IMG/VR virus record: IMGVR_UViG_2778261451_000010
Direction: 5' to 3' (one strand)
DNA: 7,746 bases
DNA from: a virus
Lineage: Duplodnaviria > Heunggongvirae > Uroviricota > Caudoviricetes
The position numbers and the translations under genes are program-made. The notes under the pieces were generated by a model. The model made no database searches. It was given only the letters and a program-made list of their open reading frames with translations, and was not told the DNA's origin. Position 1 is the stretch's first letter. Every line of letters begins with the position of its first letter. Below are positions 1,666-7,746 of this stretch, piece by piece.

Positions 1666-4110
1666 TCAATAGTCGTGGGTCATGTTGGCACGCTGGCGGG
1701 CGCGTTTATCGCGCTCAATCTGTTCGAGCGTGTCGCGTAGTTGTCTGTCAAGCTGATGCCCCGGCGCAACACCTCCCGGCAGATTGATGTTGTATTCGCT
1801 TTTGCTCTGGTCAATGTAAGAGCGCCCCGCCGGTGCGGTAACTGGCTGATAAGCCTGATAGCCGCCATATGTGCTGGTTGCCGGGATGTAGGAATTACCC
1901 TGTGTGGCGGCATTGGTTTTGGCGGCGGTCTGGTCGAGGCTGTCCGACTCTTTGTTGATGATGCCGAGCTTTTCGAGAAGCCAGTCGACACCGCTGCGCA
2001 GCTTGTTAAAAACATTGAGCGGAGCCATCAAGGCAGAGGCCAGTGCCTGACCAAATATGACGCCGACATTTTTGCAGCTATCAAGCGTTTCCTGCGTGGC
2101 CTTAACCGGTGCTATCAGGTCTTTAAACCACTGCCAGACGCCGCGCAGTTTCTCGCCGAGACCATCAAAAATGGGAGCCAGTGGAGCGAACATTTCCCCG
2201 ACTGGGGCAAAGGCACTCATGATGCCCTCAATCACTCCCGAGAAAAATGCGCTGATGGGCTCCCAATATTTACGGATGAGTAGCGCCCCCGCCACAATCG
2301 CCGCACCGACGGCCACTATCGGCCAGGTAATCGCACCGAGCGCTGTCGCAATGGCACTACCGACGACAGTAAAGACCGTACCCAGCACGCCAGCAGCGGC
2401 GATAATGGCATTAATTCCCATGACAACCGGCCACGCAACGAGACCAATGCCGCCGATGATACCAATCAGCGCCAGCGCACCACCGGCAATAATCCCGATA
2501 GTTGTCGTCAGCCCTTTGTTTTTCTGGATCCAGCCGTCGAGCTTCAACACGTATTGTGTGGCGGTTTGGGTGAGTTTGCGCAGCGAGCCCTCTTGCTGGT
2601 CAAAAAGGTCGGTACCGACAGCCTCATAAGCAGACTGGAACTCTTTAAAATCACCGCCGAGGTTGTCCTGCATAATTTTAACAAGCTCTGCGGTTTTTCC
2701 GTCTGAGGCTTTCAGGGTGGAGGTTAGCTGGTCAAGTTTGCCGGTTGAGGCGGCAGTCATGAGCACTGCCGCCGCCGAACTGGCTTCCTCACCGAATATC
2801 GTTTTCATGTATTCGGCTTGTTGACCGGTGCCGAGATTGTTACGCTCAAAACTGGCCTGCATTTCCTTGAGGATGGTAAAAATCGGGCGCGTGTTGCCTT
2901 TACTGTCGGAAGTTTTGACACCCAGCTCCTTAAGCGCATCCCACGCTTTACCGGTCGGAGCCTGCAGGCGGCTTAAAACCGCACGGCTCCCGGTGCCGGC
3001 CATCGAGCCGGTGATTTTGGCGTCATGCAGGGCGCCCACCATTGCGGCAGTTTCTTCAATGCTGACACCGGCATTTTTCGCCACCGGCGCGGCGTATGTC
3101 AGCGCATCGCTCAGCCCGTCGAAATCGGCAGCAGTTTTATTCATCACCGTCGACAGAACGTCGCCAATGTGCGCCACCTTGTCATTGGAAAGCTGAAACG
3201 CAGAGCGCATCCCCATCAGTAATGCGGCGTTTTCTTCCATCGTGCGACGGTTGGCAAGCGCCATATTGAGGGTGACCGGTGTCGTCGCCTGAATGGCTGC
3301 CGCATCGCCACCCCCTTTGGCGATAATAATCTGCGCACTGGCTGCATCATCAGCAGAAGCGGCTGTATTGTCACCGAGCTGGCGTGCCTGTTTGCGTAGC
3401 GCCTCCATTTCTGGTGACTGCTTATCGACCCCGAGCACAGCCTGCAGCTCGGAGTTTTTTTGCGCAAAGTCATAACCGGGCATCAGCAATTTAACCCCGG
3501 CCATCGTTCCCGCTGTCGCAATACCGACCCCGGCAGCACCTGCAGCGGCCATGTTACCGGCAAGTTCCTTACCCGATTTATATCGCTCTTTCACTCGGTT
3601 TAGGTGCGCCTGCTGTGCGCTGACCTTCGCCAATGCTTCGCGCTGCCGGTTGAGCTGCGCCGTCGTCTCGCTGATGCGTGTTTTAAGCCCCCGCTCATCG
3701 TTTGCCAGATTGCGGGTATTGATACCGGCGGCACCCAGCTCGCGTTGCTGGCGTTTAACCGACTCGGTGAGGCTGTTGTATTTAACCTGCAGCCCCTCGG
3801 CGGCACGTTTTGCGGATTCGAGCACCTGTGCCTGCGCTCGCGTCGGGCGCTCAGTATTTTTGAATTGCGTGGCAAGCGCTTCAGCCTCGCGCTTTGCCTT
3901 CTCCAGCGACTGGCCGGTTACGGCCAGTTGAGCGCTGGTTTTGCGAAAGCCGTCGATTTTCGCGGCCTGCCCGTTCAGGTCACGCAGCCCTTTTTGTGTG
4001 TCGCGAATATCGCCCGACAGGGTTTTACTCGCGGTCTGGATGGATTTAAGCGGTCGGGTCGCCTGGTCGACCGCTTTCAGCAAAACCTCAAGTCTCAGGT
4101 TATTACTCAT
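1666..4110 (-). CDS. T: Tail tape measure protein (P2 gpT-like), 814 aa
   Basis: 814-aa ORF; long alpha-helical, Ala/Gln/Arg/Lys-rich N-terminal region, a central block of Gly/Ala/Ile-rich hydrophobic helices (..TTIGIIAGGALALIGIIGGIGLVAWPVVMGINAIIAAAGVLG..), and position immediately downstream of E/E'; start ATG 4108-4110 overlaps the E' stop. Confidence 0.92.
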   Translation of the reverse strand: MSNNLRLEVLLKAVDQATRPLKSIQTASKTLSGDIRDTQKGLRDLNGQAAKIDGFRKTSAQLAVTGQSLEKAKREAEALATQFKNTERPTRAQAQVLESAKRAAEGLQVKYNSLTESVKRQQRELGAAGINTRNLANDERGLKTRISETTAQLNRQREALAKVSAQQAHLNRVKERYKSGKELAGNMAAAGAAGVGIATAGTMAGVKLLMPGYDFAQKNSELQAVLGVDKQSPEMEALRKQARQLGDNTAASADDAASAQIIIAKGGGDAAAIQATTPVTLNMALANRRTMEENAALLMGMRSAFQLSNDKVAHIGDVLSTVMNKTAADFDGLSDALTYAAPVAKNAGVSIEETAAMVGALHDAKITGSMAGTGSRAVLSRLQAPTGKAWDALKELGVKTSDSKGNTRPIFTILKEMQASFERNNLGTGQQAEYMKTIFGEEASSAAAVLMTAASTGKLDQLTSTLKASDGKTAELVKIMQDNLGGDFKEFQSAYEAVGTDLFDQQEGSLRKLTQTATQYVLKLDGWIQKNKGLTTTIGIIAGGALALIGIIGGIGLVAWPVVMGINAIIAAAGVLGTVFTVVGSAIATALGAITWPIVAVGAAIVAGALLIRKYWEPISAFFSGVIEGIMSAFAPVGEMFAPLAPIFDGLGEKLRGVWQWFKDLIAPVKATQETLDSCKNVGVIFGQALASALMAPLNVFNKLRSGVDWLLEKLGIINKESDSLDQTAAKTNAATQGNSYIPATSTYGGYQAYQPVTAPAGRSYIDQSKSEYNINLPGGVAPGHQLDRQLRDTLEQIERDKRARQRANMTHDY

Positions 4111-4590
4111 TGTGGTGTCCGCTACGCTGCAGCGCCTTTTCGCGCCATGTGATGAGCTCGGTCAGGCTCAGGGAATAGAGCTCTGATGGCGACCAGTGGA
4201 ATATCACTGCAATATCCGCCATCAGGTCATCGGTCGACAGGTCGGGCGGAAAATCTACTCCGCCGAAGCCGGTGACAAAAAACCAATCACCTTAGCGGCC
4301 AGCGAAAGCATATCGGGCAGGTTCATCGCGGTTAGCTCCTGCGTGGTGAGCGCGGGATAGGTCATGCGGGGCAGCACTTTAATCAGCGCATCGACCTCGG
4401 ACTGCGCCACCGCCGCCAGACTGACACCGCGCAGGGTACCGGCGTTCGGCTCAATCAGGGTGACTTTATCAATCGTCTGACCGGCGCGCTTAATCGGCTT
4501 GTCGAGGGTCACGACGTTCGGGTTTACGGTGTCAATTTCATTGCCAGCCGTATCAACAAATTCAGCGGTTTTACGTGGTGCTTTTGCCAT
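4103..4590 (-). CDS. E+E': Tail assembly chaperone E+E' produced by programmed -1 ribosomal frameshift at T_TTT_TTG (plus-strand coordinates 4276-4282); predicted 162 aa
   Basis: By hand translation, the -1 frame after the heptamer is open for 57 codons (VTGFGGVDFPPDLSTDDLMADIAVIFHWSPSELYSLSLTELITWREKALQRSGHHNE) and ends at TAA 4103-4105, 2 nt before the T start codon. This is the conserved chaperone/chaperone-extension arrangement upstream of tape measure genes (lambda G/GT, P2 E/E+E'). Confidence 0.78.
4255..4590 (-). CDS. E: Tail assembly chaperone E (P2 gpE-like), 111 aa, in-frame product
   Basis: ORF between the tube gene and tape measure gene; contains the slippery heptamer near its 3' end; position and size are typical of the tail chaperone upstream of the tape measure gene. 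Confidence 0.8.
   Translation of the reverse strand: MAKAPRKTAEFVDTAGNEIDTVNPNVVTLDKPIKRAGQTIDKVTLIEPNAGTLRGVSLAAVAQSEVDALIKVLPRMTYPALTTQELTAMNLPDMLSLAAKVIGFLSPASAE
4276..4282 (-). promoter_or_regulatory. Slippery heptamer T_TTT_TTG for the -1 programmed frameshift (reads caaaaaa on the plus strand)
   Basis: Zero-frame codons GGT TTT TTG give X_XXY_YYZ geometry; the -1 frame is open downstream to a stop overlapping the T start. Confidence 0.75.
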
Positions 4591-6366: not shown

Positions 6367-6443
6367 CCGGTTAACTCCGTGGTTAGTGGGCAAGTGTTAT
6401 TGTCCTGGCTGGTCTGTTGAGGGGCTATTTGTCAGTGTTGGGC

Positions 6444-6466
6444 GATGTCTGACACATTGAGACATC
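6444..6466. promoter_or_regulatory. Perfect 7-bp inverted repeat GATGTCT-N9-AGACATC upstream of FI; possible late-promoter activator (Ogr/Delta-type) binding dyad
   Basis: Dyad centre lies about 89 nt upstream of the FI ATG; it contains TGT...ACA half-sites but with N13 spacing in my reading, not the canonical TGT-N12-ACA; no U tract follows, so it is not a terminator. Confidence 0.3.
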
Positions 6467-6707
6467 AGCAACGGATGCGGGAAATTTTTTGTATAGCGTT
6501 GAGATACCCGAGGCGATCCAGTTTCCAGACCACAAGCGTATCGCCCTCTGACAAGGTTCTGAGTAACCTCTTTAGCCCCGGCCAGTCTGATGTTTTGCCG
6601 CTGATTTTATCTTCGAAAATCAGCTCACATCCTGCGCACTCCAGTTCATTTCGCTGTAATGCGGTGTTCTGGTCATTTGTTGATACACGTACATAACCGA
6701 TAAACAT
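6465..6707 (-). pseudogene. Truncated serine recombinase (Hin/Gin/Pin/Cin-family DNA invertase), N-terminal catalytic fragment only
   Basis: MFIGYVRVSTNDQNTALQRNELECAGCELIFEDKISGKTSDWPGLKRLLRTLSEGDTLVVWKLDRLG matches the invertase N-terminus including the catalytic Ser in the RVST motif; homology stops after residue 67 and the ORF ends 13 codons later (YLNAIQKISRIRC*). Only about 100 bp remain before FI, so the E-helix and C-terminal HTH DNA-binding domain are absent. Confidence 0.8.
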
Positions 6708-6761
6708 GAGAAATAACCCGGTAAAAAGTCGGGATCATGCCAGCTGAACGGAATATCTGCA

Positions 6762-6787
6762 TTTTCTAAAAGGTTGGTTTGGGAGAA
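6762..6787. promoter_or_regulatory. Candidate Hin/Gin-type inversion crossover site (hix/gix-like, 12-2-12 bp)
   Basis: Minus-strand reading TTCTCCCAAACC-AA-CCTTTTAGAAAA matches hixL (TTCTTGAAAACC AA ...) at 9 of 12 in the left half with the AA core; the plus-strand right half GGTTTGGGAGAA matches the gix right half GGTTTTGGATAA at 10 of 12. It lies about 55 bp upstream of the invertase start and at the 5' boundary of the plus-strand fibre-tip reading frame. Reference sites are recalled from memory. Confidence 0.45.
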
Positions 6788-7117
6788 GCCAGATATGTCA
6801 TTCAGCGAGGAGCTAATGCCAATGGTGCATGGATACGCTGGTCAGATGGTGCAATAGAAGTATTTGGAACCGGTGGATCTAATGATAATGGACTGGCTAA
6901 AGTTGTTTACCCAATTGCACTGCCTAAACTTTCACGTTTTATCAGTATCGCGGAAAGAATAAGAACGGATTACGAGAGCACACCTAATAATGTTCACGTT
7001 TCAATGATCGTGGATGATCAGGTAACAAATACCGGCTTTTATGCCCGCTGCCAGATGTACGACGGCAGACCATCATCAAATGCTTTTTCCTGGAGGGTTT
7101 ATTGTGCGCCTGTTTAA
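6779..7117 (+). CDS. Alternative tail-fibre C-terminal tip cassette (Sv'/stfE-like variable receptor-binding domain); has no independent start in its current orientation
   Basis: The frame opens at 6770 right after a TAA inside the candidate crossover site; the sequence ..GAWIRWSDGAIEVFGTGG..VVYPIALP..TGFYAR..FSWRVYC.. follows the pattern of phage tail-fibre C-terminal tip domains as I recall it; opposite strand to the tail operon and AT-richer than flanking genes. Confidence 0.55.
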   Translation: MGEARYVIQRGANANGAWIRWSDGAIEVFGTGGSNDNGLAKVVYPIALPKLSRFISIAERIRTDYESTPNNVHVSMIVDDQVTNTGFYARCQMYDGRPSSNAFSWRVYCAPV

Positions 7118-7301
7118 TCCAGTTACTTTGACTGAAGTAATCCCCGGTCTTCATGACGTGACCGGGGCTATTGAATTACCGGAGGACAACTGGTTTTTTA
7201 CTATGACAGAAATTCCTCAGGGCATGGAGCTAACAATTAATGAGAAAGGCGAACCAATACTAATTGAGGTTAATCAGTCTCAGGGAATACAGGCCAAATA
7301 A
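7104..7301 (+). CDS. Short ORF (about 65 aa) downstream of the alternative fibre tip; possible remnant or minimal form of an alternative tail fibre assembly protein (U'/tfa-like)
   Basis: GTG start at 7104 with GGAGG 7 nt upstream, overlapping the fibre-tip stop by 14 nt (operon-like coupling); it terminates inside the 3' end of the convergent Tfa gene. Function is assigned by position only; I see no recognisable conserved Tfa C-terminal motif. Confidence 0.3.
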   Translation: MRLFNPVTLTEVIPGLHDVTGAIELPEDNWFFTMTEIPQGMELTINEKGEPILIEVNQSQGIQAK

Positions 7302-7746
7302 TATCAGGCGCGGTGCTGGTATCTGTTGCCGTCACCGCGTCAGTGTAATCCAGCACAGCGTTAAGCCGGGTTGTTTCTGCCTGCGTCAGTTTCCGCCCGG
7401 CCTGTAATTTCAGCTGAATCAGACTAATGGAAGCCATTGCTGCATCAATCAGTGACTGACGCTGTGCTTCTGCCGCTTCTACTGCGGCACCGTGTTGTGC
7501 CTCAGTATCCGTCACCCATTTCTCACCATCCCATTTATCGTATGGCGTTAATGGGGCGATAGTGGTTGTATTATCAGGGTAATTACCCGGAGCTGTGATT
7601 TCTTTTGATTCTCCTGTTGCGGTGCTAAAGACGATTTCACCGCGATGGTCTGGCACATATTCCCATGAGTTAAAATCTGCAGAACGGCAGATTGCATAAC
7701 CAGCTTTGTATGCGCCTGGAGCATCTAAACAGGAACATGCCGGAAT
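7270..7746 (-). CDS. Tail fibre assembly protein (lambda Tfa / P2 gpG / Mu U family), 5'-partial; the N-terminus lies beyond the window end
   Basis: Conserved motifs SWEYVPDHRGEIVF and the C-terminal ..RLNAVLDYTDAVTATDTSTAPDIIWPVFPE resemble lambda Tfa (..SWHLVEDHRGKTVY.. / ..RVDTSTAPDIEWP..). The track starts the ORF at GTG 7656, but by hand translation the frame stays open to position 7746 and the DHRG motif normally sits about 60-70 residues into Tfa proteins. Confidence 0.85.
   Translation of the reverse strand: MPACSCLDAPGAYKAGYAICRSADFNSWEYVPDHRGEIVFSTATGESKEITAPGNYPDNTTTIAPLTPYDKWDGEKWVTDTEAQHGAAVEAAEAQRQSLIDAAMASISLIQLKLQAGRKLTQAETTRLNAVLDYTDAVTATDTSTAPDIIWPVFPETD

Follow-up and report, generated by a model that had tools for sequence, protein, structure and literature searches.

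Gene organization of the locus

The window analysed in this study, a stretch of DNA of 7,746 nucleotides, is identical to the corresponding part of the chromosome of Escherichia coli EC6622 (NZ_CP096587.1), and contains the tail module of a prophage of the P2-like type whose insertion point adjoins rplS. Positions beyond the window are given in the 19.4-kb region designated L001, in which a window position equals the L001 position minus 2701. The tail genes (gpD, gpU, tape measure, E/E', tube, and sheath) are encoded on the minus strand. Rightward from the sheath gene, the locus continues with a resolvase-family open reading frame (ORF) on the minus strand, a 26-bp element, a fibre tip without a start codon and a 65-aa ORF, both on the plus strand, and a tail fibre assembly gene (Tfa) on the minus strand that crosses the window end. 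The tail assembly chaperone pair (4103–4240 and 4255–4590, minus strand), annotated as two coding sequences ('phage tail assembly protein' and 'GpE family'), is located just upstream of the start of the tape-measure gene and overlaps it, which is the usual place of the programmed frameshift of P2 E/E+E'. Beyond the window, two hypothetical genes (L001 14270–15204, plus strand) lie between baseplate V and the virion morphogenesis genes. This pair on the opposite strand is found in EC6622 and in strain ESBLEC_MG48, and its absence from the prophage of the CH strains described below indicates that it is probably a cargo (moron) locus.

Fibre tips and assembly genes

The silent fibre tip cassette (6776–7117, plus strand) consists of 113 codons and a stop codon, without a start codon of its own. 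It is related to the virion structural protein family phrog_2557 (E = 1.4e-15), and shows a weak match to the Gp53-like_C family (E = 0.0023) that falls below the Pfam cut-off. Downstream of this tip, where a cognate assembly or chaperone gene would be expected, is the 65-aa ORF (7104–7301, plus strand; WP_001440573.1), which matches phrog_5400, a family of unknown function, over profile positions 1–66 of 145 only (E = 1.4e-25). The product is weakly similar to a 139-aa Tfa in the N-terminal part of the latter, and is devoid of the conserved Tfa C-terminus. Its length of 65 aa is kept in TW01221 (L002), ESBLEC_MG48 (L003), and a further locus (L006). Judging from its position, the 65-aa ORF is a candidate assembly partner of the silent tip.

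In the expressed orientation, fibre gene H (L001 10576–11649, minus strand) encodes a protein of 357 aa composed of a P2-type Phage_tail_fib N-terminal domain (E = 8e-63) and a Collar domain tip (E = 5e-15). The accompanying 201-aa Tfa (7270–7746 within the window, minus strand, with the full gene reaching window-equivalent position 7875; RefSeq coding sequence, L001 9971–10576) belongs to the Pfam family Caudo_TAP (E = 6e-32 to 1e-31). The 3' ends of the 65-aa ORF and the Tfa gene, which are encoded on the plus and minus strands, respectively, overlap by 32 bp (7270–7301). The two tips thus come from different families (Collar domain versus a weak match to Gp53-like_C), which is suggestive of different host ranges conferred by the two tips.

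Crossover site A

The 26-bp element at 6762–6787, hereafter site A, has a 12-2-12 architecture with an outer half (6762–6773), a TT core (6774–6775), and an inner half (6776–6787), and reads TTTTCTAAAAGG TT GGTTTGGGAGAA on the plus strand and TTCTCCCAAACC AA CCTTTTAGAAAA as the reverse complement. In a scan of the window with the Hin/Gin/Cin/Pin consensus TTNTCNNAAACCNNGGTTTNNGANAA at up to three mismatches, site A was the sole match, with two mismatches; by chance, 0.01 matches would be expected per window, and 1 of 200 shuffles contained one. As a positive control, 6.2 kb of phage Mu was scanned at up to four mismatches, and the two annotated G-segment boundaries were returned and nothing else, showing that the consensus criterion is both sensitive and specific. 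An earlier note, made from the DNA letters of the window, had described the element as a hix/gix-like site of 12-2-12 organization. The Hin-family assignment was borne out by the scan, but the specific type is that of the P segment of prophage e14 (Pin) and neither hix nor gix, with window positions 6774–6789 matching the published P-segment repeat at 15 of 16 positions (PMC12529663).

The codons in the tip frame across site A are TTC TAA AAG GTT GGT TTG GGA GAA GCC. The frame is closed by the TAA at 6767–6769, inside the outer (left) half of the site, and is open from 6770 up to the stop codon at 7115–7117, in agreement with the description of the frame boundary in the earlier note. No partner of site A was found within the window by the consensus scan, and a half-site-like match at 2563–2574 (two mismatches) was rejected as a partner because it is at chance level. 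A fortuitous resemblance, in which the 26-mer would not be a recombination site at all, has nothing in its favour apart from the outer half TTTTCTAAAAGG being off the consensus at two positions, and is already refuted by the low expectation given above, by a partner site having the correct orientation, core, and frame, and by natural inversion end-points located exactly at the site, both of which are described below; its probability is negligible. Site A is a crossover site of a Pin-type tail-fibre switch.

Partner site in the fibre gene and the predicted inversion product

The partner, site B (TTCTCCCAAACC-AA-GGTTTTTAAGAA; L001 11029–11054, window-equivalent 8328–8353), lies about 1.5 kb further on, past the window end, inside fibre gene H, and matches the consensus with one mismatch. 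Its location in the fibre gene upstream of the Tfa gene is where the earlier note had anticipated an inverted copy. Sites A and B were the only two consensus matches in the 19.4 kb of L001, and two matches occurred in no shuffle; a third site, as in a shufflon-like multi-inversion system, was not found in the 19.4 kb at up to four mismatches. All 16 compared positions of site B agree with the published P-segment repeat of e14, TTGGTTTGGGAGAAGG (PMC12529663).

Sites A and B are inverted relative to each other and share the central dinucleotide, which appears on the plus strand as TT at A and AA at B, as had been predicted. Their inner halves are identical as reverse complements at 12 of 12 positions, and the two sites form an inverted repeat of 21 nt that is 90% complementary, with 15 nt being perfectly identical. 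At A as at B, the core falls on codon positions 2–3 and is followed by GGT TTG GGA GAA (G-L-G-E), the site within the fusion encoding L-G-L-G-E. When the 1,566 bp between the cores was exchanged in silico, both sites were regenerated, and the inverted H gene encoded an uninterrupted fibre of 316 aa with the last 118 residues derived from the silent cassette. The reading frame is therefore kept over both junctions, which is a further expectation of the earlier note.

Disruption of the adjoining invertase gene

The resolvase-family ORF beside site A is a 5' fragment of an invertase gene (6507–6707, minus strand) that keeps codons 1–67, including the catalytic-serine motif YVRVSTNDQ. It matches the Pfam Resolvase family (E = 7e-20) over profile positions 2–76 of 145 only, and is marked in RefSeq as a pseudogene 'missing C-terminus'. 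Over 67 residues, the fragment is 88% identical to residues 1–67 of an intact P2-like Pin, 87% to PinE of EC6622, and 78% to Gin of Mu. Relative to TW01221 (L002), in which this place is occupied by an intact gene for 197 aa, 319 bp is missing between the aligned blocks (residues 68–170). The deletion junction is located at about 6507–6517, and the 3' remnant (6428–6517, minus strand) corresponds to codons ~171–197 and is out of frame; residues 171–197 of the invertase were found by tblastn in another frame. The deletion was mapped by short-word blastn and tblastn, default megablast of the truncated versus the intact region having given no match. Since this copy lacks the E-helix, the remainder of the catalytic domain, and the greater part of the DNA-binding domain, no active enzyme can be produced from it, and a functional small serine recombinase (about 180–200 aa, with catalytic domain, E-helix, and C-terminal HTH) adjoining one of the sites is lacking at this locus.

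Of 5,426 complete E. coli genomes, 35 gave an uninterrupted match to a probe for the deletion junction, and these carriers of the deletion allele were obtained in varied countries from humans, calves, swine, river water, and wastewater. The probe also matches the Peduoviridae record vB_EcoM-613R3. On these grounds, the deletion marks a widespread and successful P2-like lineage and is not a private lesion of one strain.

The recombinational enhancer of the invertase family is an element of 65 bp with two Fis sites; in its native arrangement, it is situated within the invertase gene, ~99–100 bp away from one of the crossover sites (McLean et al., PMC3798978). The centre of site A lies ~67 bp from the invertase ATG, a spacing also found in Mu, in pinE, and in TW01221 (L002). 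Geometry and homology place the expected Fis-dependent enhancer at ~6620–6690, well inside the retained 5' fragment. A Fis-like 15-mer (G-N13-C) is present at 6672–6686, 95.5 bp from the centre of site A; no convincing distal Fis-like partner of this 15-mer was found in a Fis-site scan. The retained fragment may bear a functional enhancer.

Inversion in related prophages

The junction predicted to arise from inversion, used as a 700-nt query, gave a full-length match of 98.1% in strain ESBLEC_MG48. At this position (L003 3743–4693), the strain has an annotated fusion fibre of 316 aa followed by the 65-aa ORF, and the collar tip and Tfa are now silent and located beside the invertase remnant. 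The segment in ESBLEC_MG48 is likewise 1,566 bp long, is bounded by the same two sites, and has the orientation opposite to that of the window. The single assembly of EC6622 presents one orientation.

The strains CH423, CH458, and CH425 come from one hospital, have genomes of 4,740,891–4,740,904 bp, and harbour a sister prophage with different cassettes. No mismatch was seen between CH425 and CH423 in the 38,500 bp flanking the segment, a length that takes in the whole prophage and ~11 kb of host DNA, and the 1,865 bp between the 26-bp sites, themselves identical to A and B, is the exact reverse complement in one strain of that in the other. Both CH425 and CH423 carry the deleted invertase allele. 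As the two prophages are identical but for the inversion, the inversion postdates the deletion and is very recent. The exchange point in this pair is resolved to the shared 15-bp identity, and the comparison does not tell enzymes apart.

In principle, RecA-dependent homologous recombination acting on the two short inverted repeats could also produce the inverted orientation and would give the same product sequence as an invertase; the 21-nt repeat with its 15 identical nucleotides is consistent with such a route. However, 15 identical bp are generally too few for RecA to recombine them efficiently in E. coli, and the sites have the full 12-2-12 architecture at the canonical ~67 bp from the invertase start codon. 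Moreover, inversion at this same repeat by Pin enzymes has been shown, with locking in a pinE mutant (PMC12529663). We therefore consider this route very unlikely, and site-specific inversion by a Pin-type enzyme is preferred.

In many other prophages, the constant part of H is 99–100% identical to that of EC6622, and the similarity ends only a few bases from where site B does (positions 364–370 of the 700-nt junction query), past which different tip/Tfa cassettes are found. Site B is therefore also a mosaic boundary at which cassettes have been exchanged.

Candidate invertases acting in trans

A chimeric query, consisting of an EC6622-specific single-copy anchor and the 309 bp of pin that is deleted in the window, detected exactly one extra Gin/Pin-type locus per chromosome in EC6622, CH423, CH425, and CH458. 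In EC6622, the extra locus is an intact pinE gene of 184 aa in a prophage that looks complete and lies between paoD and thrW, 2.57 Mb away from the window, and the encoded PinE is 81% identical to Gin. An intact pinE is present at the same paoD/thrW position in CH423, an assignment made by position and not by the probe. No extra chromosomal Gin/Pin-type locus was found in 10035210-2, GMM060, FDAARGOS_1253, and KE40; in these four genomes, the early region of the prophage is 99.7–99.8% identical to the CH anchor, and the deleted allele was confirmed in KE40 only.

The pinE gene of EC6622 belongs to a second, complete invertible tip/Tfa system (NZ_CP096587.1 3711869–3714652; L018 11870–14653). 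Its own sites are TTCTCCCAAACC-AA-CGTTTATGAAAA and TTCTCCCAAACC-AA-GGTTTTCGAGAG. The inner half and the AA core are those of sites A and B, and the outer halves differ at several positions. At two places 2.57 Mb apart, the EC6622 chromosome accordingly has a total of four crossover sites that are compatible with one another.

Other chromosomal sources of an enzyme were also considered. Neither EC6622 nor CH423 has the e14 prophage at icd. A 168-bp pinH-like fragment near ypjA (L016 22438–22605) is a pseudogene and not a target of the probe. The pinR gene of the Rac prophage was likewise dismissed as a probe target, being ~37% identical to the Gin/Pin group and without a DNA match. In EC6622, pinR (L011 12510–13100) is intact and adjoins tfaR in Rac, with stfR apparently replaced by IS1, and no crossover-like sites were found near it. 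PinR is kept as a secondary candidate because of the published precedent on the homologous segment of e14. The P segment of e14, bounded by the repeats TTGGTTTGGGAGAAGG and CCTTCTCCCAAACCAA, was shown by qPCR to be inverted by PinE and also by PinQ and PinR from other cryptic prophages, and a pinE mutant was locked (Kirigo et al. 2025, PMC12529663). Works cited in the same paper describe an action of Fin, from Fels-2, on the H segment of Salmonella, and of PinE on both the H segment and the G segment of Mu.

With the local invertase dead and the sites and the 5' fragment retained, it is most likely that the segment is flipped in trans by the intact PinE of the second prophage, as supported by the clonal comparison of the CH strains, the matching half-sites, and the published precedent. 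Possibly, PinR of Rac acts on the segment as well.

A contrasting explanation is that the switch is a fossil, its genuine sites being frozen in EC6622 and the inversions seen in relatives either predating the deletion or representing rare accidents. The cis invertase is unquestionably dead, and genomes without an extra Gin/Pin-type locus (e.g., KE40) may well be locked, both of which are in line with such a state. However, CH425 or CH423 was inverted after the deletion, the two being otherwise identical over 38.5 kb; PinR and an intact PinE, the latter with matching half-sites, are encoded in EC6622; and both cassettes and both sites are intact in EC6622 without pseudogene flags. We thus regard a frozen switch as unlikely.

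Proposed mechanism of the switch

Altogether, it is highly probable that the locus is a Pin-type switch of a P2-like prophage whose own invertase is dead, and which is flipped, most likely in trans, by PinE. The 1,566-bp segment holds two convergent cassettes, each composed of a fibre C-terminal tip and a downstream assembly gene, a putative one in the case of the silent tip. In the proposed mechanism, the tip that faces the constant N-terminal 198 codons of H would be translated as a fusion across the site. In the orientation of the window, the collar-domain tip and the 201-aa Tfa would be expressed, and the tip beside site A and its 65-aa partner would be silent. PinE of the co-resident prophage, and possibly PinR too, would supply the inversion, and EC6622 may still be switching. 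The fusion of a constant fibre N-terminus to this tip in the manner of Mu S/S', as put forward in the earlier note, is upheld by the in-frame product of 316 aa and by the natural relative that carries it, but not as a self-flipping system, the adjoining invertase being internally deleted.

If the segment is indeed controlled in trans, it would be expected to be locked in one orientation in genomes without an extra Gin/Pin-type locus. An annotation of the locus as a fixed fibre plus 'hypothetical proteins' overlooks the alternative fibre of 316 aa. When a compatible enzyme is encoded in the genome, a prophage with a dead invertase can still switch, so that the other prophages of the cell may influence the host range of tailocin-like particles or of the phage after induction.

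A broader and more tentative proposal concerns the whole lineage with the deletion (35 of 5,426 complete E. coli genomes). It is conceivable, though we lean against it at present, that this lineage has kept an orphan switch, with its sites and the enhancer-bearing 5' fragment, that is obligatorily run by the invertases of unrelated prophages (PinE, and perhaps PinR or PinQ). Were this the case, host-range switching of one phage would depend on the other prophages of its host, and the host might also exploit the switch, by analogy with the anti-T2 effect of StfE2 of e14; Pin-driven inversion of the homologous e14 segment was recently reported to block T2 adsorption. The lineage is a convenient natural system for studying cross-prophage control.

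Comparison with known invertible tail-fibre systems

The closest known system is the P segment/PinE of e14 in E. coli K-12 (PMC12529663; Plasterk & van de Putte 1985, as cited in PMC4272514), which has the same crossover repeat, agreeing with site B at 16 of 16 and with site A at 15 of 16 positions. The pinE-annotated loci of ECOR29 and STEC1575 are ~90% identical in nucleotide sequence to window positions 6507–7746. Loci of the e14 type share the layout found here (invertase, silent tip, small ORF, convergent Tfa, and expressed tip), the in-frame fusion across the site, and the capacity to be inverted by enzymes of other prophages. Unlike e14, the present segment resides beside the sheath gene of a P2-like (Peduoviridae-type) prophage, has a constant part resembling P2 H (Phage_tail_fib), and has lost its local invertase by deletion.

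With the G segment/Gin of Mu (S-U/S'-U'), the locus has in common the inverted 26-bp sites of 12-2-12 architecture, of which one lies within the fibre gene and its partner precedes the invertase start by ~67 bp, and a constant N-terminus joined to alternative C-termini, each with an assembly gene, a role that the 65-aa ORF would have for the silent tip by its position. It differs from Mu in the core (AA/TT versus TC/GA), in the length of the segment (1.6 kb versus 3 kb), and in having no functional cis invertase.

Inversion of tail-fibre segments was demonstrated by sequencing and PCR in two P2-like prophages of enteropathogenic E. coli (EPEC) E2348/69 and in e14 (Goldberg et al. 2014, PMC4272514). 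These P2-like loci of E2348/69 and that of TW01221 (L002) are from the same type of phage and occupy the same place between the fibre and sheath genes. TW01221 has the intact 197-aa invertase and the sites TTCTCCCAAACC AA CGTTTAAGAAAA and TTCTCCTAAACC AA GGTATGCGAGAA. The EPEC and TW01221 loci have an invertase of their own, and one of the EPEC loci has three repeats giving four variants, whereas only two sites are present here.

The action of PinQ and PinR on e14 and, as far as the citation in PMC12529663 indicates, that of Fin on the Salmonella H segment likewise involve an enzyme from another prophage of the same genome. However, those targets also have a working invertase of their own (PinE and Hin, respectively), whereas the cis gene is dead at the present locus, so that action in trans would be obligatory. 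The kind of system is thus already known, and the locus is an ordinary example of it that involves no new class of mechanism, with the modest twist that a lineage deleted for its invertase still flips, most likely by PinE of another prophage.
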